Positions 4,664 through 64,000 of a stretch of 64,000 nt of DNA are shown here, in pieces (the stretch's first letter is position 1; each line of letters begins with the position of its first letter). The position numbers were made by a program, and so were the translations under genes. Under the pieces are notes generated by a model. The model was given only the letters and a program-made list of their open reading frames with translations, ran no database searches and was not told the DNA's origin. Origin of the DNA: a virus; IMG/VR virus record IMGVR_UViG_3300005518_000002, positions 17,860 to 81,859 of that record; one strand, 5' to 3'.

Positions 4664-4936
4664 TCAGCCGTCCTCTTCCGCCCGCAGGCGTCCCGCCCGG
4701 CGCATGGCCACGTAGCAGAAGAGGAAGGTCTTGGTCGCCAGGTTCGCGTTGGTCCGGAAGTTGACCGGCAGCGCCGTGTTGAAACTGGCCTGGTTGGTGT
4801 CGATCCAGTCATCCGTCGCTGCTACGGCTGCGGTGATATCGGTCTTGGTGATGCCTGCCAGGGACGCACCGGCAATCACCGCGTCGCGCATGAACTGCGC
4901 AACGGCACGGGCCCGGTTGGTGGCGTCCAGAGGCAT
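4664..4936 (-). CDS. Hypothetical protein, 90 aa (MPLDATNRAR...)
   Basis: True start inside the 240-aa track ORF; TGATCATG junction with previous gene. Confidence 0.7.
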   Translation of the reverse strand: MPLDATNRARAVAQFMRDAVIAGASLAGITKTDITAAVAATDDWIDTNQASFNTALPVNFRTNANLATKTFLFCYVAMRRAGRLRAEEDG

Positions 4937-4938
4937 GA

Positions 4939-5418
4939 TCAGACCGTCACTCGGTAGATCCCGTTGGCGTTCCAGACGATCGTGAACGTCCCCGCGGTGA
5001 CACTCTGCGCCCCGCCGAAGTAGTTGTAGCAGACCCCCTGGTCGGCCACGGTGCCGCCGGAAATCGTGTCGTCGTAGACCAGGCACCCGAACGCGTTGGT
5101 GATGGTGACGGTGCCGCCACCTGCCAGGTCCGCAGCGTCGAACATGAAAACCCCGGTGGACGGGGTGGTGAAGGTCTTGGACGCCAGCGCGCGGCCGCCA
5201 CTGACCCAGTTGGTCACGTCGGTCACTTCGTTGGCCGTGACCCAGGTGCCCGTGTTGAAGCCGGTGGACGCGGCGGCCGCGTCCTTGTCCGGCGTCACGG
5301 AGTTGTTGAACAGCGCCGCCTTGACCGTGTCGGAGTCCAGGCCGGTGTAGCTGGTGCCGGAGACCTGGACCTCCTGGGAGAACCACTCCCGGAACAGCTT
5401 GCTGTCAGCCCATGCCAT
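4939..5418 (-). CDS. Virion structural protein (tail/fibre-associated)
   Basis: DSDTVKAALF...FDAADL...GTFTIVWNANGI pattern common in phage structural modules. Confidence 0.65.
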   Translation of the reverse strand: MAWADSKLFREWFSQEVQVSGTSYTGLDSDTVKAALFNNSVTPDKDAAAASTGFNTGTWVTANEVTDVTNWVSGGRALASKTFTTPSTGVFMFDAADLAGGGTVTITNAFGCLVYDDTISGGTVADQGVCYNYFGGAQSVTAGTFTIVWNANGIYRVTV

Positions 5419-7343: not shown

Positions 7344-7625
7344 TCACACAATCGTGGTGTTGACCATGTAGCTGATGTAACCCGGACTCAGCGAACTCAT
7401 TGACCAGGCCCAGAGCGCCGCCCCGGCTGCGAGTGGGAATGAGACGGGGCCGCTGTCCCCGGTCTGCACCAGGCGGCACCCGTGCTCGTTGTCGTTCGCA
7501 GACCCGATCTTCACGGAGTACTCGGACCAGAAGATCGTCACCATGCGCGTCCCGAGCAGGGACGACGCGACGATCTGGACCGGCGTCGTCCCTTCGAGAT
7601 ATGCCTCTTCGGTGATCAGAGTCAC
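7344..7625 (-). CDS. Hypothetical protein, 93 aa
   Basis: GTG start at 7625 with AGGGAGGA RBS. Confidence 0.55.
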   Translation of the reverse strand: MTLITEEAYLEGTTPVQIVASSLLGTRMVTIFWSEYSVKIGSANDNEHGCRLVQTGDSGPVSFPLAAGAALWAWSMSSLSPGYISYMVNTTIV

Positions 7626-9656: not shown

Positions 9657-12600
9657 TCACCCCTCTCCGTGGACGCGACGGCGCATGATGTCCATCACCC
9701 GAGCGTATGCCCATTTGTCGAGCTGATCCTCCCGGACCTGGTTGGACAGGTGCGGGATGCCGCTGGCCACCAGGGCGAACTGGGATCCGGCCTTGACCGA
9801 GGTGCGCAGCTTCGGCACAGGGAAGCCCGGAGTGTTCACGGCCAGCAGGCCCACCAGGCGGAGCTGTCCGCCGATCCTGCGCCAGTCTCCGGAGACCTGT
9901 CCGGCACCGCGGAGCTCGTGCACACGGCTGCTGTCCGCGCCGGGGCGCACCGCACCGGCCACCCAGATCCCGTGAGCGTCGTTGCCGACCACGACGTCCG
10001 CCACGGCGGCACCCGTGTTGTCGTAGTGGTCGCTGGCAGCGTGAGCGTTGTAGCTGATCGGGGCGTGCCCCGTACCCACGGTGATCTGACCGACGGACAC
10101 CCGGGAGTCGTCCGCACAGACGATCTCGCCCGTCATGAAGTACGGGTGGTCCTCCTCGTGCGGCGGGGTGACGCACACTCCGGCCTGACCGATGTGGCAG
10201 GTACCCCACAGGGCGGCATGACCGTAAACGCGCCCCTCGTTGTCCACGGTGATTCCTGTGGGCACGGAGAGGGCAGGATCCTGGAACCAGGTCACGGGGG
10301 GAGCCCAGCCGGAACCGCTGGCGCGCAGGACCGGACCGGTGAACACGGGCCGCGGAGTACGGGAAGCGCGCAGTGCGCCGATGCGCTCACCCCCGGCAAG
10401 CACGGCTCCCTCTTCATCGAGCAGGGCAATGTACGCCTCAGCGAAGGCGGGGATGTCCACCACCGTGGCTGCACGGATGCGTCCCCGGTGGAACACGATC
10501 TTCTCGGGGGACGCGAACAGCATCTCGAACAGATCGGCTTCCTCCCCGCCCTCCCCGTCCGGCATGTCCGGCCAGACGAGCTCCATGTCCGCGTCCTTGA
10601 TCGAGTCGACGTCTACCGAGACACCGCGGAGGAACTGACCCTTGATCTTGTCGTGGACGCGCTGGCCGTCCTCGTCACCCAGGTCGAGCAGGCCCTCTCC
10701 CATGACCAGGCTGCCCTCACGCCAGATCTTGGTGATGTTGCCGACGTTGACCGCCACGGTGTGCGGCTCCCCGCCGTGACTGTCCTCCTTGTTCCAGCGC
10801 AGGGGGAGGGGGAGGTCTGCCCAGGTGAGGGAGTCGGTGTCGAACTCGCGTCCGTCGCCGGTCTCGATGCCCTCCACGGTGAGGGGCCCGCGCCAGGGGG
10901 CCGTCTTGCCTTCCAGCTCAACGGGTCCTGAGGTGAGCTCCTGCTCCGCCTCGGTAACGACGACTCCCGCCTCCTCCCCGTACTTGTTTTCCTTGATCCT
11001 CTTGTCCTTCTTCGTGCCCTCGCTCGGCTTGGCTCCCAGGTCGGCTTCGGTTGTCATTTCACCGCTCGATTCCGCCGCGTAGAGAGCGGCAAGCTGATCA
11101 TTCGCTTCCTGTTCCGAGGCATGGCATCCGGCAACGCTGCCGTCCGAATCCTTGACTACCGCCCAGGGCTCAGAGGACGGGCATCCGGAATGTCCCTGCA
11201 CCGTGTGCCACGGCATGGTTCCCTCCTCCACCAGGGCTTCGGTCGCGCTCATGATGCCACCGTCGGCCGTTACCGAGTCGTCCAGACCACCCCACACGGC
11301 CAGGAGCGTGCCCCGGCAGCGGGATCCGCCCTGGCATTTTGCGTAGCCCGATCCGCCGCTGGGGTACGCCTCCATCGCATCCTGGCGGGAGACGAACTCC
11401 ATGCCGTCGATGCTGATGCAGGGCTTGCAGGTGTTCTTGTCCAGCGCTTCCGACGCGACGTACTGACCCAGCGGGGCAACCATGAGCACGGCCATGCGTC
11501 CGGTGTTCTGCGCGCCGGTCATCGCGGCACCGATGGCCTCCTCGTCCGAAGCGTCGGACAGCTCGTCCAGAGCACCGTCCACGTCGTCCGCCAGCTCCTC
11601 GCTGTCCCGGCCGGAGCCGAACAGGGCTGCCAGACGCGAACGGGCCGACTGAACCAGCCGGTTGCCCATGATGCTGGCGCGCATGGAAGCGACACCCCGC
11701 AGGATGTCCGAACCCGAGAGTGCGGCAGTCAGACTGTCCAGGGTCCACTCCGGAACCGTGACCCCCTGCTCCTCGGCCTCCCGCTGCTGTGCTTCACCGG
11801 CCTGCTGAGCGAGCAGCAGCATGCGGTGGTACAGGGTCTCGGCCGCTGCCGTGGTGTCCACGGAGATCTGCGGCGAGATCCCCCCGGCCGAAGTGATCTG
11901 CTGCCGGATCTCCCTGCGCCATGAGAGCTTGACCTCCTGCCAGCTGCTCAGTGCATCAGCGACCGCTTCGGTCCAGTCCTTCTGGTGAGCGGCGAAGTCC
12001 CAGCGGCTGGCCTCCTCCAGAGGCGTCAGATTGCGCCTGAGGGGAGCGGCAGCAGCTGTCAGAGCGGCCGTCAGGGGAATGTCGGTGTCTTCGTCGGCGA
12101 AGCTGATGCGGATGCGGTCGAACGTCACCTCCCCCAGCCTCTTCTCCAGCTCCTTGGCCAGGGTGAGGTCCCCGGTGTACGCCGCGCAGATGTGCGCGAC
12201 CCAGGGGGTGTGCTGCGCGGGCAGGGTAGGGTGGTTGTGCATGTACTCCAGTGCCTCGGTGGCCAGAATGTGGGCGAAGGAGAGGCTGCCTCCCAGCTGT
12301 ACGGCTGGCTCAGGTTCTGCGTCGCCCACCGACCACACCCAGCTGGGTGACTCCCCGCCAGCGTTCCAGTGGGAGACGCCGAACACCTTGGCACTGACAG
12401 GGCCGTCCAGCTCCTGAGCGAGCATGGTCATGCTGGAGATGAGCTCCTGGCGCTGCTCCGGCGTCCAGAGCTCCGCATCATCACCCACGAAGAACAGGGT
12501 GCAGTGCAGATCTTCAGCCTTCTCCCCGCCCTTGATCGCCAGACGCTTCGCGTCGGCCACTGTCGGCATGAGCGCGATCATGCAGCCGGACAGATGACTG

Positions 12601-57295: not shown

Positions 57296-57297
57296 CT

Positions 57298-57326
57298 GAG
57301 GGGCCCTTCGGGGCCCCTTCTTCCTT
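57298..57326 (+). terminator. Intrinsic terminator
   Basis: GAGGGGCCC-TTCG-GGGCCCCTTC followed by TTCCTT. Confidence 0.8.
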
Positions 57327-57415
57327 AAAAATCACGGTTTATTTTTAAAGCCCCAGGTCAGGGCGTTGATCGAAACTTTACAACGAGCCGGATTAGCTGT
57401 TTACTTAAAGCAGAA
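57327..57415 (+). promoter_or_regulatory. AT-rich promoter region
   Basis: UP-like AT tract, TTTACA...TACTT spacing, overlapping CTGTTTACTTAAA box. Confidence 0.6.
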
Positions 57416-57419
57416 CAAC

Positions 57420-57800
57420 AAAACAGCACGACCGAGCCACCGGGGGTCCAATCCCCCCGGAGCCCGGGGAAGATCGGGAAGAGGACGCTACGGTCAGCCT
57501 CACCGGATCACCCCACAGGGGCAGCGGATCGGGAGTCGAGATCTTCTCCTCCCCCGCAGGATCGGAGCCCGGAACATAACCGGGCGGGTCACGCAGCAGA
57601 CCTCAAGCGCTCGTCGCAGCTGGAGACAGGCACCGGACCTCCGCAAAACCGGTAGACGAACCGAGTAGGAGATCGGGCGCGGCTGGCATGAGGGTCAGTC
57701 ACCGTACCTCCCAAAGGACGAGTCGGAAGCACCGGCCAGCAACGGCGTAAGGGCAGCGAGCTACAGACTGCATCTCACGGGGCCGCCGGTGACGCACTAC
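57420..57800 (+). ncRNA. Candidate long structured RNA
   Basis: No credible ORF; stems GGGGAAGATC/GATCTTCTCC, GCCCGG/CCGGGC, GTCACCG/CGGTGAC. Confidence 0.5.
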
Positions 57801-57806
57801 ACACGA

Positions 57807-57884
57807 CCCTCCGCTCACAGTCGAAGTCCAGATATGACCCCGCACTGGAGTGACTGCCCGTTCGAGTCGGGCCCGGAGGGACCA
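57807..57884 (+). ncRNA. tRNA-like element lacking D-arm and anticodon, ending ACCA
   Basis: CCCTCCG/CGGAGGG acceptor; T-arm GCCCG-TTCGAGT-CGGGC; inner stems CAGTC/GACTG and TCCAG/CTGGA. Confidence 0.65.
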
Positions 57885-57922
57885 ACCGCACACCAACTGA
57901 AGATCACAACAAGGAGCACACC

Positions 57923-58126
57923 ATGATGGAATTCCCCCTCGGCACGCCGGTCGCCTACAAGGGGTCCGAGCGGTGGCCCAGCGCCATCGCTGCTGTGGTC
58001 GTCGAGCCCTTCATCGTGAACGGCCAGACCGACCCCGAGCGCGTGATCATCGACTGCGGGCCGACCCGGTACGCCGCTCCTTACGACCGGGACACCCGGA
58101 TCGTCTGGACCGACCAGCTGACCTGA
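57923..58126 (+). CDS. Small SH3-like hypothetical protein
   Basis: 67 aa, AAGGAG RBS. Confidence 0.65.
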   Translation: MMEFPLGTPVAYKGSERWPSAIAAVVVEPFIVNGQTDPERVIIDCGPTRYAAPYDRDTRIVWTDQLT

Positions 58127-58146
58127 TCATCGCTATCCCCCGATAA

Positions 58147-58205
58147 GGCGAAACCGGCGCGAGCCGGTCGGCCGGAGATCACCTCCCGGTCCTGACGAGC
58201 CAGGT
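58147..58205 (+). ncRNA. Type II hammerhead ribozyme
   Basis: GGC-GAAA-CCGGC(GCGA)GCCGG-UC^-GGCCGG..CCGGUC-CUGACGA-GCC; all core nucleotides present; ACCU/AGGU pseudoknot possible. Confidence 0.9.
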
Positions 58206-58231
58206 CAGTCCAACTGAATGACGGAGAGATC

Positions 58232-58740
58232 ATGGACAAGGACATCACCGTCCGGCGGCACTCGGCCGTCCCCGGCCTCAAGGACGTCCACCTGAAGGCC
58301 CAGCCCGCCTACACCTTCACCTACCGCGGAGAAAACTACTCCGCGGCCTACGACCGGCTGAGCGAGATGTGGAGCGTCAGCTGGGTGAGCTCGCCCGACG
58401 GTGCGACGCACCCCATGGCTGTGCGCTCCTCGCTGGAGCAGGCCGTGCGAGACGCCATGAGCGATGTGGACCTGATCGCCCGGCACCTCCCCAAGGTGCC
58501 CCAGACCACGACCCGGGAGAACTGACCATGCGTGACCTGACCGAGCCGGTCGACTGGCAAGTGCTCATCAGTCACCCAGCCTCACGGACTGAGTACCAGG
58601 AGGCCGAGACCAGCAGGGGCACAGTGGCCCGGGTGACCGAGGACGGGCACGAAGTCGTCTCCCCCAGCGGTGACACCGAGCAGGTGCGGCGGCAGTACAA
58701 CGGCCGGGTTCAGGCGTACCTGAAGTCCTACGGTCTGTAA
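58232..58740 (+). CDS. Two small early genes (58232-58525, 58528-58740)
   Basis: RBS-led ORFs. Confidence 0.65.
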
Positions 58741-58804
58741 ATCGCACCACCCGTGAACTGTACTGATCAAAGGCCCTCCACCGGCTACGGTGGAGGGCCC
58801 GCCA

Positions 58805-58875
58805 GCCTCCATGGGGTAATGGATGCCCGCCGGGTTCTCAGCCCGGAGATGCCGGATCGTGACCGGCTGGAGGTA
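58805..58875 (+). tRNA. Atypical tRNA-Glu(CUC)
   Basis: GCCTCCA/TGGAGGT acceptor; D GGGT-AATGGAT-GCCC; AC CCGGG-TTCTCAG-CCCGG; T GCCGG-ATCGTGA-CCGGC. Confidence 0.75.
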
Positions 58876-58916
58876 CGCAGGAACGACCAACTGAACAGGA
58901 CCACAGGGAGATCGCT

Positions 58917-59201
58917 ATGAGCACTGCTGCCAGGCCGACCTGTCTGGAGCTCGCAGTCAACTGGGAGCGCGGCTGGAAGGTCTACGAAGTGACCGGCACC
59001 CGGCACGCGCATTTCCTGCTGAAGAAGCTCGCTGCTCGCGACGGCTTCCTGGGAGCCCGGCTGCGGGATCTGCTGTACGAAAGTGACGGCACGGTGACGA
59101 ACAACGTCCTGATGTTCTCCAGCCAGGACATCCTGTACGGCAGCGAGAAGTTCGGCGCGCTGCTGGACCGGGGCAACAGCAACTATGACCTGGAGCACTG
59201 A
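58917..59201 (+). CDS. Hypothetical protein
   Basis: 94 aa, AGGGAG RBS. Confidence 0.65.
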   Translation: MSTAARPTCLELAVNWERGWKVYEVTGTRHAHFLLKKLAARDGFLGARLRDLLYESDGTVTNNVLMFSSQDILYGSEKFGALLDRGNSNYDLEH

Positions 59202-59206
59202 TCGAC

Positions 59207-59344
59207 CCCTCTGTCCGGATGGAACGGGCCGCGACCGCCTCGGGCGGGGAAGCCGGTCCGGACGGAGGCCATGCCGGGGATATCCAGCGGGTGCTCGCGT
59301 GATCAGCACGCCCCCGGGGGTTCGAGTCCCCCGCCCGGTACGCA
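59207..59344 (+). ncRNA. 12-bp hairpin ending CCA followed by second D-arm-less tRNA-like element
   Basis: CCTCTGTCCGGA/TCCGGACGGAGG-CCA; then GCCGGG.../GGGGG-TTCGAGT-CCCCC-GCCCGGT. Confidence 0.55.
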
Positions 59345-59370
59345 GGAACACAGACCAAGGAGGACCAGCC

Positions 59371-62112
59371 ATGGATGCAAAGGGATTCAAGATCACTAAG
59401 AAGGAGGTCCGGGGACGGGTCCTCGTGACCTGCTCCGAGCACGGGAAGCTCGCGGTTCACGGCGGAGACTTTCCGTGGACGGCCGCACAGGTCACGGAGT
59501 GGACCCACGCCCGCGACGTGCACCGCGTGCCCGTCACCTTGTAACTGTGGACGGCACATGTCCGGCGGGGCGGCACGCCTACCCCGCGACACGCATGGCC
59601 ACGATGAGCGAAGGCAAGCTCCGGTTCTACTGCGGCGGTTGCCGAAGGGACCGGGACGGAGCCCGGAGGGAGCGGGACTACCAGCCGTACGAGCCGGACA
59701 TGGAAGCCGTGAAGCGCGCGGTGTACGGCGATCCCCCCGAGTACCTGCATCCCGCGGAGCGCCGCCTGGCAGCGGAGGAGATCTACGCCGTCCCGCTGCC
59801 GCGCCGCCTCAGTCTCTCCGTATCGGCGCAGCATCTGCGCTGCACTCCCCGGCACGTCAGCTGGCTGTTCAAGAAGATCAAGGAAGCGAAAGAGGGGTAA
59901 TGGTCACTAAGAATCAGGCGCTGAGCGTCAACGACTTCCACTACGGCACCTGTACCCGCGAGACGGGACCCCGTGGCGGCGTGAAGGAGCGCATCGAGCG
60001 CTGGCGTCGCAACGGGTCCACCCAGACCTGGAAGACCCGTCCGCGGGAGTTCCGCCTTCCGGTCAAGTACGGCATGCGCGGCTACAGCGTGATCACTCAG
60101 GACAACGCGTCCGACTTCCACACCGAAGCGGACTGTCCGCTGAATGGAGGCTGATCATGGGTGCCACGTACAGCACGGTCCGCATCAGCCCGGTCCGGGT
60201 GGGCAACGGTCTCTGGAACCGCTGGGACTTCACCCGGGACGGTGCCACTGTCGGTGAGATCACCGAAACGGAGCGAGGCTACGTGGGCAAGCTGTTCGGT
60301 CCCCACGGACCGAACGGCAGGCCCGCGTTCACCGGCTGCGAGCTGCCGTTCCGGCAGTCGGTATTCGACCAGCTGACCAAGCAGGACGAGAAGAGGAGCT
60401 AGCTATGGCAATGGGGCAGGACCAGCGGGAAAAGGCACTGGACAGTCTGCGCGGCTGTTCACCTTTCAGGAGCGCGAACAGTGCCCTGTCGGCCGCGTAC
60501 GGGTGCCAGGGCACAGGAAAGCTGGACCACGAATACAAGGCCGATGCCGAGTCGGCCGGTTACGTGGTCTACAGCTACGAGACGCCTATCGCCTGGATCC
60601 GGCAGGACGGCACGCGGGTCATGCCGTCCGCCCGCTACAGCCAGGTAACGGCTCAGCACAAGGGCATCGTCCGTCAGGCATGGGCGGGGCGTGTGCGCGA
60701 GATCTGATCTCCGCCCGGCTGCACAGCCTCCGGTCTGTGCAGCCTGCGAGGCTGATCAGCCTTGACCACCGAGTGCCAGGAGACCACATGAACAAGATCG
60801 TCCGGCTTCTCTCCACTCTGTTCGGCAGCTGCCCCTCGGGTGGCGATCACCTTCCGGGCACGTCCGGTGAATGGGTCGGCCGCTGTACCAAGTGCGGCAA
60901 CCCCACCAGCTGATGGCAGGGACCAAGCGCCCCGGAGGGCTTCAGCCCAAAGGGCCCTGGGACAACAGGCCGCAGCCTCCGAGCCCCGGCCGTATGCAGT
61001 GACGACACCGCCGCCCGGAGCCTGAGCTCCGGGCGGCCGGGAGGGAAACATGCCAAAGATCGTTCTTCTTCAGCCGTCGGAGTACACCGACCACATCACC
61101 GCCGACGGTACGCAGCTGACCAAGCTGCCGTATCCGGTCGGTGTGCACATGGACGGCTCCGTCACCAATCAGGAGTTCTGGCAGGGCGACCCGTATCGGG
61201 TCATCGGCTTCCAGCGTGACCTTGCCCGGCACGAGATCGACGTGTGGTGGGCCGAGGTCTCCCGTGATCCGCAGAAGGCCGTCGGTCTGTACCTGGTCAC
61301 CGGGGACAGCAAGGGCGGCATGGGCGTGCACCAGACGGCCATCTCCAGCGTTGAGGTTCTGGGATCCGAATGAAGAGGATCCAGATCACGAAGACCAGGC
61401 GGCCGACCGGTCCGCCGGACATCGACACCCGGACGCCGTCCGGCCGACCCCTGCCGTACTGAGGGAGGGGCCGTGCAGACGAAGTTCGAACACGAAGTCG
61501 CGTACCTGATCGGCCGCCGGTATCACGTCTCCATATCGAAGACCGGGGGAGGCACCGTCGGTCGCCGGTACGACGGCGACTGGTCGTACGCGATCAGGAG
61601 CCAGAACTACCGGGGCAAGCTGCTGATGTTCGGCAGCGACCTGTCCACCGGCAATCCGTCAACCCACCGCGAGGCCGCGGAACTCGCGGTCGAGATGTAC
61701 GAGGGGATCTGACCATGAGGATGGCGTACCCCAACCTCACCTGGGAGAAGGCCAGCTGGCCGGACCAGACCTATCAGGCCAGGCTCGGGGAGTGGTCGTT
61801 CACCATTGACTACGTCGGCCCGGAATGGCGCCTGCGCGGCTGGCACTCCAAGGAATTCTCGGCCTGCCGTTATGCCAGGACCGCTGCTGAGCTCCAGCAG
61901 TGGGCCGACGACAACGTTCAGTAAGGATGATCATGGACAAGTGCACGAAGTGCGGCATCGCACACCCGCCCAGTCTCAAGCAGTGCGAGGGCTGTTCCGG
62001 TCCGCTGGAGAGCTACCTGAAGGCATACGAGAACGGCTGTCTGAAGGTGACATGGACCCTGTGCCCCTCGCACTACTCGCAGACGCTCAGCAGTCACCAC
62101 GACGAATACTGA
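59371..62112 (+). CDS. Small early genes (59371-59544, ~59595-59900, 59900-60154, 60157-60402, 60405-60707, 60788-60913, 61050-61373, 61473-61712, 61715-61924, ~61927-62112)
   Basis: Packed co-oriented ORFs with RBS or coupling. Confidence 0.6.
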
Positions 62113-62143
62113 TCAAGCACGACACCCGGCTTGCGCCGGGCCA

Positions 62144-62214
62144 GCCTCCATGGGGTAACGGATGCCCGCCAGGCTTTCAATCTGGAGATGCCGGATCATG
62201 ACCGGCTGGAGGTA
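62144..62214 (+). tRNA. Atypical tRNA-Glu(UUC)
   Basis: Same body as 58805-58875; AC arm CCAGG-CTTTCAA-TCTGG; T-loop ATCATGA. Confidence 0.75.
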
Positions 62215-62248
62215 CGCACCGCAACTGAACAACGACCAAGGAGCTCAC

Positions 62249-63224
62249 ATGAAACACGAAGGCCAGCTCGTCGTACCGGCAGTGAACCGGCTGGAGGTCA
62301 TGCCGTACTGGCCGATGTACGCGGACTGGATCGACCACCTGAACGAGTGTGCCCAGTGCGGCACCGTGATGGTCAGCGGCGATCAAATGATCAGCGGCCT
62401 GTGCCCGGAGGGCCAGACGCGTCAGCAGGATCTCCAGCACGACCTGATGGCTCAGTCGTCAATGGCCGCGCTCAACTGAAGAGGAGAAGTCATGGCAACG
62501 GCAAGCGCAGTGAGCCGGTACCTCGGTCAGACGTTCGCCCGGGCCGAGAGCTGGACGACGCGGGTGAAGGGCTGGCACAACTACAGCTCCGGGTTCGAGG
62601 TCCGGATGATCGGCTACGGAGAGAACCGGGGGAAGGTTCAGGTCGACCACAGCCTCGGGGACCACGGCCACCGGATGACCCCGGAACAGCGGGCGCCGAA
62701 GATCCGGAGCATGATCTCCGAGTACCGACAGAAGCTGGAGATCCGGTATTCGGTGGAGGTCGTCGCCGGGGGCACGCAGCTGATCGTGTCGGACAAGGGG
62801 AAGTCGTGAAGCCGCTGAAGGTAGGTGACCGGGTTGTCGTCACCCCGTCTGCTAAGGGTCCGGTCAAGGGCAGTCGCGGAAAGGTGGTCTCGGTGTATGC
62901 CCACGGCCGTGGCTACGGCGTACTGCTCGACTGGAAGTACGACCACCTCCAGCTGCCGTGCGCGTTCAAGCCGAACGAGATCAGGCCGGAGGACGAGAAG
63001 TCATGAAGACAGGGTTCACCGCAGCGGAGCTCCGCAGGGCACAGTCCGAGGGGGCGAAGATCATGGCGTATGACACTGAGGTGGAGTACAAGCCCTCCCG
63101 GGACCGGGACGTCACGCCCTGGCGGGCTCTCGGCTCCCGGGTACGCTACCGGTCCACAGAATGCCGTCCTGTGGAGCCCCGCGGGGGTGGCCCCTGGGCG
63201 GTGGCCAGGCTCATCAGGTTCTAG
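62249..63224 (+). CDS. Small early genes (62249-62479, 62492-62809, 62806-63006, 63003-63224)
   Basis: RBS-led or overlapping ORFs. Confidence 0.6.
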
Positions 63225-63270
63225 CGTCAGACGGCCGTACAAGCCCGCCGGGGGGCCAATCCCGGCACCC

Positions 63271-63342
63271 GCCCCTGTAGCTCAGCCGGAAGAGCGGCCG
63301 CTTTAAAACCGGCACGCACAGGTTCGAATCCTGTCGGGGGCA
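63271..63342 (+). tRNA. tRNA with UAA anticodon (Leu/bldA-type), short variable loop
   Basis: GCCCCTG/CGGGGGC; GCTC/GAGC; AC GCCGC-TTTAAAA-CCGGC (C.C mismatch at loop base); ACAGG-TTCGAAT-CCTGT; A73. Confidence 0.8.
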
Positions 63343-63369: not shown

Positions 63370-63997
63370 ATGGAAAAGAAGATCACGAAGGTGCGCGTCA
63401 GCATGCTGGTCGCGGTCGACGTGGAAGGCTACGCGAACGAGTACGGCCTGGAGCCGAAGCCCAACATCGTCCGCGCGGATGTGAAGCAGTACATCGAGGG
63501 GTGGATCAACGACGGCCCCGCGGGTTTCGAGTTCATGGAGATCATCGAACCGGGATAGGAGAACAGATCATGACCAAGACCATGGAAGACAAGGTCGAAC
63601 TGGTCCGGCTGAACCGGCTGTACCGCGAGGCCATCGGTTCGGAGTACTTCCTGTACACCGAACCGGCCGGTGGAGGAGACACCCGGTGGGTGTTCACGGA
63701 CGGCTCGGTGTACAGCCTGGACACTGCGCTTGTGCTCATGCGCGGAGCGCTGGAAGCCCTCGGTCTGGACTCCGTCCGATGAGCACTCCGGAGTGGGAAG
63801 GTCCCGCGTACCCGGATGTCTCGGTCCAGCTGTCCGGCCAGGACGGGAATGCTTTCGGCATCATCGGTTCCGTGTCCCGGGCCCTGCGCAGGGCGGGACA
63901 CCGGGAAGCGGCCGAGACGTTCTCCCGGGAAGCCGTGGACTCCCCGTCGTACGACGCGCTGATTCAGCTCGCCATGCGCACGGTGGACGTCCGGTGA
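63370..63997 (+). CDS. Small early genes (63370-63558, 63570-63782, 63779-63997)
   Basis: Last has VQLSGQDGNAFGIIG motif seen in small phage proteins. Confidence 0.65.
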
Positions 63998-64000
63998 GCC

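Follow-up and report, generated by a model that had tools for sequence, protein, structure and literature searches.

It was found that, in a phage genome recorded as IMGVR_UViG_3300005518_000002 in IMG/VR, nearly every long gap between the small genes of a putative operon carries one RNA element, which may be a hammerhead ribozyme, a tRNA, or a remodelled tRNA shape, and that these different elements are framed by common flanking sequences. The stretch analysed here (the window) is the last 64,000 nucleotides (nt) of the 81,859-nt record, and a window coordinate equals the genome coordinate minus 17,859. Coordinates refer to the window unless they are marked as genome coordinates; L007 denotes the genome numbering of this phage. 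The element set of the operon comprises one type II hammerhead, about six cloverleaf tRNAs, and three tRNA shapes having either the acceptor stem and the T arm only or a doubled anticodon arm. I lean slightly toward the reading that hammerhead self-cleavage, the host RNase P, and 3′-end enzymes cut a polycistronic transcript at these elements, the cuts and their effect on mRNA stability being inferred from the sequence.

The placement of the elements is highly regular. Between position 57296 and genome position 4462, nine of the ten gaps longer than 100 nt (according to my own gene calls) have exactly one element. All elements are intergenic and lie on the coding (+) strand, and the distance from the 3′ end of the element to the next start codon is 22–40 nt. 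An initial annotation of the region, made from the sequence alone, had listed seven elements and described them as dispersed singly, each shortly upstream of a ribosome-binding site (RBS). Six of the seven were found at the positions it gave, the weak item being a long structured RNA, and the description of their placement holds. Within the units, the order is a stop codon, a stable hairpin, the element, a short trailer, a leader, an extended Shine-Dalgarno sequence (often GGAGAGATC), and a start codon. Most elements are preceded by a hairpin; either a GC-rich hairpin or a conserved 28-nt motif ends 0–8 nt before residue +1 of the tRNA shapes.

The flanks on the 3′ side are also shared. The trailer A-CGCA follows the discriminator residue in tRNA-Glu(CUC), tRNA-Glu(UUC), the tRNA-like element at 59252, and the tRNA with a doubled anticodon arm. 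For comparison, five related phage contigs were retrieved with a conserved 393-amino-acid (aa) protein (genome 3056–4237); three of them are called G001 (locus L009), G002 (L010), and G003 (g3_op) below. The ACGCA trailer is found 3′ of tRNAs in relatives as distant as G005, which has 40% identity in the shared protein. The octamer CAACTGAA occurs six times in the window, compared with 0.73 copies expected, and never on the minus strand. Genome-wide, there are nine copies, all on the + strand and each located 11–25 nt upstream of a start codon, before the RBS. This octamer comes after the hammerhead as well as after the tRNA shapes. The only long gap of the operon without a recognised element (60916–61049, 134 nt) has a 12-bp hairpin, GCCGCCCGGAGC...GCTCCGGGCGGC, immediately ahead of the RBS for the gene at 61050.

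The hammerhead at 58146 has a complete core, namely GAAA at 58150–58153, GUC at 58167–58169, and CUGACGA at 58192–58198, and an A-U pair (A15.1-U16.1) closes its stem III. The Rfam match and the intact core predict self-cleavage between C58169 and G58170, which is where the initial annotation, having placed a hammerhead at 58147, had located a 5′-OH end at 58170. The score exceeds the Rfam gathering score by a small margin (39.3 vs 37 bits). It adds a new member to an established family, barely over the threshold. In an alignment of 18 sequences from the relatives and from cluster BD Streptomyces phages, the three stems (stem II is open) show compensatory changes in 11 of 15 pairs, while the core is invariant. 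It is the only hammerhead that Rfam finds in the whole 81.9-kb genome, and no gene of this phage is flanked by several of them.

The Rfam tRNA model (RF00005) matches six sequences of the operon at 46–63 bits, three in the window and three past the genome junction. The gathering score of this model is 29 bits; a run at the gathering threshold reports the elements at 62144 and 63271, and a more permissive run adds that at 58805 and no other match of note. All three, which had been noticed as two tRNA-Glu-like elements and a tRNA-UAA, are therefore Rfam tRNAs, and ARAGORN folds them into cloverleaves with 7-nt anticodon loops. The tRNA-Glu(UUC) gene is a paralogue of the tRNA-Glu(CUC) gene with 90% identity, flanks included (repeat family D2). 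Their T loops, AUCGUGA at 58805 (arm 58853–58869) and AUCAUGA at 62144 (arm 62192–62208), depart from the canonical T loop, having A at position 54 and U at position 58 (the canonical U54 and A58 swapped) and retaining U55 and C56. As a separate observation, the Glu T arm GGAUCAUGACC resembles the usual start context of this phage, GAUCAUG; at 6 nt, it is complementary, via a palindrome, to 15 of 34 leaders, compared with a shuffled mean of 2.9. The tRNA with a UAA anticodon has a variable loop of 4 nt and lacks the long variable arm of bacterial class II tRNA-Leu, and in its D and T arms it hardly differs from the tRNA-Phe(GAA) of the same phage. Its appearance is that of a Phe-type body whose anticodon has changed, not that of a bldA-type tRNA-Leu. 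At the far end of the series, past the genome junction, the doubled-arm tRNA has flawless acceptor, D, and T arms, while its anticodon stem extends into a second helix; with such a geometry, it cannot contact a codon.

Two further elements in the window, predicted as a tRNA-like element at 57807 and a hairpin plus a tRNA-like element at 59207, are both present and keep only the acceptor stem and the T arm. The core of the 57807 element (family A) is an irregular hairpin with a 13-nt loop, with no normal D or anticodon arm, and it is called neither by Rfam (E values up to 5) nor by ARAGORN. Homologues are found in G001 (L009:5490-5562), G002 (L010:3683-3774), and G003 (g3_op 7535-7620), with the same T arm and with acceptor stems that are different yet paired. 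The element at 59252–59341 has a paired acceptor stem and no recognisable D or anticodon arms. It has no Rfam match (E values up to 5) and is called by ARAGORN alone, as a doubtful 90-nt "Ala-AGC". Its homologue in G002 (L010 ~2465-2537) has a different yet paired, i.e., covarying, acceptor stem and the same trailer and leader. A strict scan for an acceptor stem combined with a T arm recovered the elements on the + strand of the genome, compared with one match on the minus strand and 0–3 matches in shuffled sequences. Thus, chance is excluded for the tRNA shapes. Among T-arm matches in IMG/VR that are not tRNAs, a perfect 7-bp 5′ partner was found 19 times, compared with 7.25 times (maximum 12) in shuffled controls.

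Is the interchange of elements seen in other phages? The relatives have few of the operon's small genes in common with this phage, whereas they do share its RNA elements. The hammerhead is about 80% identical in G001 and G003 despite different flanking genes. In G003, there is a second hammerhead, and the first gene of the operon (105 aa) is flanked by both. Moreover, the homologous promoter and leader of G003 end in a hammerhead at the place where the present phage has the 57807 tRNA-like element. The slot 3′ of the 393-aa gene has a canonical tRNA-Trp(CCA) in only one of five phages; the remaining four have remodelled tRNAs there. Across the five phages, this slot keeps 7 of 7 acceptor pairs and the T stem, four and two of these pairs, respectively, through double changes; the D stem is invariant, and the anticodon region, 17–41 nt in length, is not alignable. 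In the slot of the tRNA(UAA), G003 has a degenerate long-arm tRNA-like element after the same upstream gene and the same 28-nt motif. The number of Rfam tRNAs per relative varies freely from one to three. Structural covariation among related phages, which the initial annotation had named as a check, was thus found both in the hammerhead and in the acceptor and T stems of the shared slot. Since the acceptor and T stems are kept and the anticodon arm is free, selection seems to target the part that RNase P and RNase Z recognise rather than decoding. Such a pattern would follow from selection on the top half of the tRNA, the half that RNase P, RNase Z, and the CCA enzyme read.

The hammerhead also matched unannotated gaps in the cluster BD Streptomyces phages. 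Daudau (L005, NC_054668) and Alvy (L006, NC_054669) have eight Hammerhead_II matches each within 8 kb of a small-gene operon, of which six per phage are above the gathering cut-off. Every match lies in a gap from a stop codon to the next RBS, GenBank annotates none of them, and there are no tRNAs in those loci. It seems that, in Daudau and Alvy, the hammerhead alone may take the role that is mostly held by tRNA shapes in the present phage. Short similar sequences, GTGTAAGTGACGC and GTGTGAAGGTGTAGC, flank many of the Daudau and Alvy hammerheads.

How might such a transcript be processed? RNase P is essential and constitutive, and a transcript that runs through a tRNA shape would be expected to be cut by it. 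In the proposed mechanism, the hammerhead would cut itself after C58169, the host RNase P would cut at the 5′ end of each tRNA shape, and a host 3′-end enzyme (of the RNase Z or RNase E type) would cut after the discriminator, between the A and the CGCA of the trailer. The upstream mRNA would then obtain a stable 3′ hairpin, which would be either the protective hairpin before the tRNA or the stem III of the hammerhead with a cyclic phosphate. The downstream mRNA would start with a standard leader of 26–40 nt (often with CAACTGAA), followed by the extended Shine-Dalgarno sequence and the start codon. Should 3′ cutting be slow, the downstream mRNA would keep a structured 5′ end, that is, a tRNA shape with a base-paired 5′ end; the downstream product of the hammerhead would have a stem I hairpin with a 5′-OH. 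Free tRNAs or tRNA-like RNAs would be released, and the long early message would end up as several pieces, each with its own stability and translation. The punctuation part of the initial annotation is therefore consistent with the anatomy of the units, the slot exchange, the covariation of the stems, and the precedent of phage hammerheads, and it is weaker for the canonical tRNAs, which may simply decode.

Several points weigh against this reading. The five or six good tRNAs may serve mainly in decoding, in which case the cutting of the mRNA would be a by-product. The CAACTGAA and ACGCA flanks could reflect the duplication of a cassette rather than a function. With one hammerhead in this genome, the case for treating hammerheads and tRNAs as equivalent comes from a small number of slots in a small number of relatives. 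RNase Z, cutting on the 3′ side, would leave a leader with a 5′-monophosphate, which is normally destabilising. The co-transcription of the units is suggested only by the lack of promoter motifs between the elements, and the GC-rich hairpins that precede the tRNAs might themselves terminate transcription, even with no U tract. The gene calls were made in this study from third-position G+C (GC3) and RBSs. Finally, when a 6.1-kb stretch was compared with public sequencing runs, only DNA runs from soil or rhizosphere matched, and no RNA run did.

An alternative is that these are ordinary phage tRNA genes, which assist decoding in the host, with decaying pseudogene copies, placed where insertions are tolerated, that the hammerhead is an unrelated, known phage element, and that any cutting is incidental. 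In its favour, the six elements have good scores on the Rfam tRNA model, the phage makes frequent use of GAA (290) and GAG (974) codons, the relatives have one to three Rfam tRNAs each as gain and loss would predict, and the common trailers may come from duplication, as the 90% identity of the two Glu genes with their flanks illustrates. Decay, on the other hand, is hard to reconcile with acceptor and T stems that are perfectly paired with compensatory changes, and with anticodon arms that have been replaced by longer, perfectly paired helices. Members of both family A and the long-arm family turn up in several phages, and the excess of perfect 5′ partners among the non-tRNA T-arm matches in IMG/VR is not what decay would leave. 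As for ordinary decoding, TTA makes up only 7 of the 23,015 codons of the phage, and the body of the UAA tRNA is of class I and Phe-type. The hammerhead, in addition, has the same flanks as the tRNAs. I consider this alternative unlikely, if still to be taken seriously for the canonical tRNAs.

It may also be asked whether the remodelled tRNA shapes are themselves the product, excised by tRNA enzymes of the host as stable, small trans-acting RNAs that would be either tRNA-scaffolded antisense regulators of leaders or decoys for tRNA-directed defences. There is real support in G001, where the loop of a long-arm tRNA-like element is complementary to GAACCGATCA, a sequence present at four to five sites of that locus, all beside start codons. 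This element fits a tRNA-scaffolded antisense RNA. The long-arm family is also found in G003 and other high-GC phages, and the perfect pairing of the anticodon-arm extensions suggests a selected structure. In the present phage, however, none of 34 leaders offers a 7-nt complementary match to the distal loop of the 57807 element or to that of the doubled-arm tRNA, neither strand of the window holds anything antisense to CAACTGAA, and the only excess of complementarity is due to the palindromic GATCA start context. The decoy version, which the initial annotation had offered against anticodon-nuclease defences, finds no support in this phage: the remodelled anticodon arms resemble no anticodon loop of any tRNA and would make poor decoys, and the phage encodes no recognisable tRNA repair enzymes. 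Neither a CCA-adding enzyme, RtcB, nor a T4-type RNA ligase was found in the phage, although the Rnl1 search matched no control genome either and so carries no information. Overall, a trans-acting product seems improbable as the general explanation. The long-arm family has members at L009:7415-7510 (G001), g3_op ~9670-9775 (G003), L050, and L082, the loop containing UCGGUUCC, and no member was found in the present phage.

The notion that the GC-rich hairpins are factor-independent terminators and that each element belongs to its own short transcript is very improbable: strong hairpins do precede most elements and actinobacterial terminators can lack a U tract, but the 0–8 nt between hairpin and element leave no room for a promoter, the conserved promoter motif is confined on this strand to 45268, 57400, and genome 3010, and the hammerhead abuts the stop codon region and the RBS, as in cluster BD phages. 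Fragments of tRNA genes of the attP type were ruled out for this operon by the complete, paired acceptor stems in multiple copies.

The punctuation of transcripts by tRNAs is textbook knowledge for mitochondria. In plant mitochondria, mRNA ends are formed by RNase P and RNase Z cutting at tRNA-like t-elements (Forner et al. 2007; PMC1920247). The phage operon is similar in that tRNAs and non-decoding tRNA-like elements lie on the sense strand between coding regions. It differs from t-elements in belonging to a bacteriophage with an actinobacterial host, in having an upstream hairpin or pseudoknot and ACGCA flanks, and in having a ribozyme alongside, and it is known here from the sequence alone. 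As to ribozymes, clustered prophage hammerheads have been proposed to cut phage transcripts into gene-length mRNAs, with in vitro cuts for three arrangements (Perreault et al. 2011; PMC3088659). Ribozyme punctuation of phage operons is therefore a published idea. The present hammerhead resembles that system as a type II hammerhead with a consensus core, located in a coding-strand gap of a phage just upstream of an RBS, and several such hammerheads flank single genes in G003 and cluster BD phages. Unlike that system, there is a single hammerhead here, the other slots have tRNAs or remodelled tRNAs with the leader motif of the hammerhead, and slot exchange is not in that paper.

Other phage RNAs bear a partial resemblance. 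The C4 RNA of P1 and P7 and the CI RNA of the satellite P4 are non-tRNA phage transcripts with a helix like the acceptor and T arm, and they are released by RNase P. They are single antisense regulators with known targets, whereas there are many elements here, most of them with no detectable target in this phage. T4, T5, and cluster C mycobacteriophages have clusters of tRNA genes. The present tRNAs resemble them in being, as it appears, co-transcribed with small open reading frames (ORFs), while they differ in that the elements are single, 340–2900 nt apart, each in its own stop-to-RBS gap with common flanks, and one third of them cannot decode. Relative to the searchable literature, the mixture of hammerhead, tRNAs, and remodelled tRNAs in equivalent slots, the shared flanks, and the conserved top half of the tRNA appear to be new.

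More speculatively, actinophages and many tailed phages may share a modular kit for long early operons, in which self-cleaving ribozymes, full tRNAs, and remodelled tRNA shapes persisting only as RNase P and RNase Z sites (some of them also serving as tRNA-scaffolded antisense RNAs) would be interchangeable at gene borders and framed by a 28-nt end-cap and a phage-specific leader. This generalisation is offered tentatively and may well be too broad. If the cuts do occur, phages would set the stoichiometry and lifetime of early mRNAs via RNA cut sites using the tRNA-maturation enzymes of the host, which would be a parallel in bacterial viruses to mitochondrial tRNA punctuation. It would also explain why non-decoding tRNA-shaped genes persist in phages, why ribozymes and tRNAs often adjoin, and what many unannotated gaps of actinophages contain, such as the gaps with eight hammerheads each in Daudau and Alvy. 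The elements would be natural compact insulators, usable for the engineering of Streptomyces operons.

The motif of about 28 nt mentioned above has the consensus CGGCCCG-CCGGGA-GCCGYAA-UCCCGG-CA. In the relatives, it takes the form (A)CGGCC(C/G)G-CCGG(G/A)A-GCCG(U/C)AA-UCC(C)GG-C and is found directly upstream of many tRNA-like elements. The loop sequence GCCG can pair with the upstream CGGC, which makes an H-type pseudoknot possible; in the copy at 57427, an upstream G-to-A change is matched by a C-to-U change in the loop, a single compensatory example read from the sequence. A pattern scan of IMG/VR gave many chance matches as well as a true family, whose flanks are conserved, in phages with 35–71% G+C. 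In low-GC phages, the motif lies 5–30 nt before an RBS, and in high-GC phages, it lies before tRNA-like elements. In two cases, a sigma-70-type promoter precedes it by about 20 nt, and in one case, a twister-P5 ribozyme follows immediately on its 3′ side. No Rfam family matched the motif, and a literature search on its sequence found nothing. The guanidine-III riboswitch shares sequence words with it, although their order along the strand differs and RF01763 gives no match; the resemblance was judged coincidental. The motif is a candidate new RNA family and could be a nuclease-blocking end-cap or a new processing element.

The operon begins after a terminator that closes the preceding unit. 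An AT-rich promoter had been noted in front of the region, and a promoter-type motif is indeed present there, conserved in two related phages: both the box CCCCAGGTCAGGGCG and the −10-like TTTACTTAAA (TTTAcTtAAA) are kept in G001 and G003. The motif TTTACTNAAA (TTTACT(G/T)AAA) occurs on the + strand only at 57400, 45268, and genome 3010. A generic sigma-70 scan gave no promoter, and terminators only at the chance level. Thus, the promoter function is inferred from a conserved phage-specific motif. The box CCCCAGGTCAGGGCG, lying ahead of the promoter motif, could be an operator. As for the "long structured RNA" of the initial annotation, a gene-free leader of about 400 nt is real, and the special fold is not borne out. 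The leader folds no better than shuffled sequences (z = −1.07), has no Rfam match, and has only patchy similarity (57411–57806) to the leaders of G001 and G003; the candidate of a special structured RNA at 57411–57925 was rejected on these grounds. The leaders of G001 (L009:3540-3870) and G003 (g3_op 4690-4954), of about 300 nt, are near-identical to each other over long purine-rich non-coding stretches. The coordinates of the features are given in Table 1.

Table 1. Features of the putative operon and copies of the 28-nt motif (window coordinates unless marked otherwise)
Feature	Position	Strand	Remarks
Intrinsic terminator	57300..57326	+	GGGGCCC-TTCG-GGGCCCC and T-rich tail, read from sequence; after stop codon 57293-57295; closes preceding unit
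Putative promoter region	57351..57409	+	Box CCCCAGGTCAGGGCG at 57351; −35 TTTACA 57377-82; 17-nt spacer; −10 TTTACT 57400, then TAAA (to 57409)
Long non-coding leader, ~400 nt	57411..57806	+	No ORF with coding-type GC3
28-nt motif, diverged copy	57427..57460	+	In leader, ~20 nt past presumed transcription start
tRNA-like element, family A	57807..57884	+	7-bp acceptor CCCTCCG/CGGAGGG; T arm GCCCG-TTCGAGT-CGGGC; 3′ ACCA
Leader motif CAACTGAA	57894..57901	+	21 nt before start codon 57923
Type II hammerhead ribozyme (predicted)	58146..58209	+	Rfam RF02276; E 1.9e-05 in 7 kb
Leader motif CAACTGAA	58211..58218	+	After hammerhead; 13 nt before start codon 58232
Perfect 12-bp GC-rich hairpin	58772..58799	+	5 nt upstream of tRNA-Glu(CUC); fold of 58760-58880, −68.1 kcal/mol, z −4.26
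tRNA-Glu(CUC)	58805..58876	+	Rfam 48.6 bits (match 58805-58875; more permissive run), ARAGORN; trailer ACGCA
Leader motif CAACTGAA	58888..58895	+	21 nt before start codon 58917
Long imperfect hairpin	59208..59268	+	From fold; precedes 59252 tRNA-like element
Degenerate tRNA-like element	59252..59341	+	Best cloverleaf-like fold 59272-59340; canonical T arm GGGGG-TTCGAGT-CCCCC; trailer ACGCAGGAAC
tRNA-Glu(UUC)	62144..62215	+	Rfam 49.7 bits (match 62144-62214), ARAGORN; trailer ACGCA
Leader motif CAACTGAA	62222..62229	+	19 nt before start codon 62249
28-nt motif copy	63241..63267	+	3 nt upstream of tRNA(UAA); repeat family D8
Class I tRNA, anticodon UAA	63271..63343	+	Rfam 62.6 bits (match 63271-63342), ARAGORN; start codon 26 nt on, at 63370
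tRNA-Phe(GAA)	genome 283-356	+	Rfam; trailer ACGCG
tRNA-Asn(GUU)	genome 1701-1774	+	Past genome junction
Doubled-arm tRNA	genome 4331-4422	+	Acceptor, D, and T arms flawless; anticodon stem extends into second 7-bp helix, 8-nt loop
28-nt motif copies elsewhere	L009:5460-5489, 7386-7410; L010:3655-3682; L013:10880-10905; L078, L084, L033, L063, L064, L088, L102		

How far does the operon extend? The two ends of the record have 120 nt in common, and the contig IMGVR_UViG_3300005468_000024, from another sample and 99.5% identical, passes uninterrupted over the genome junction; it brings no covariation information. Thus, the genome is circular or circularly permuted, and the operon runs on from position 64000 of the window into genome 1–5000. 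The putative transcription unit would be about 8.3 kb in length with about 30 small genes, from the promoter near 57400 to a hairpin at genome 2975–3003, its co-transcription being suggested by the sequence; the region 57420–63342 is its first 6 kb. A second unit of the same design comes after that hairpin.

The host is probably actinobacterial and Streptomyces-like, because the G+C content of the DNA is 66%, a gene for a WhiB-family regulator lies further downstream of the operon elements (L007:5920-6330), Streptomyces phages are the nearest GenBank matches, and the matching public runs are from soil or rhizosphere. The GenBank matches came from short pieces (hammerhead and tRNA pieces only) in a distant search mode, while megablast against GenBank phages gave no match. 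When the operon proteins were compared with PHROGs and Pfam, nearly all were orphans and no functional hint was obtained for the genes adjoining the RNA elements; the exceptions are the WhiB protein, one PHROG of unknown function, and a protein with a phage ProQ C-terminal-like domain (PF24203, 51 bits). The last is encoded at L007:1878-2246, directly 3′ of the tRNA-Asn in the same operon, and is possibly an RNA-binding protein.

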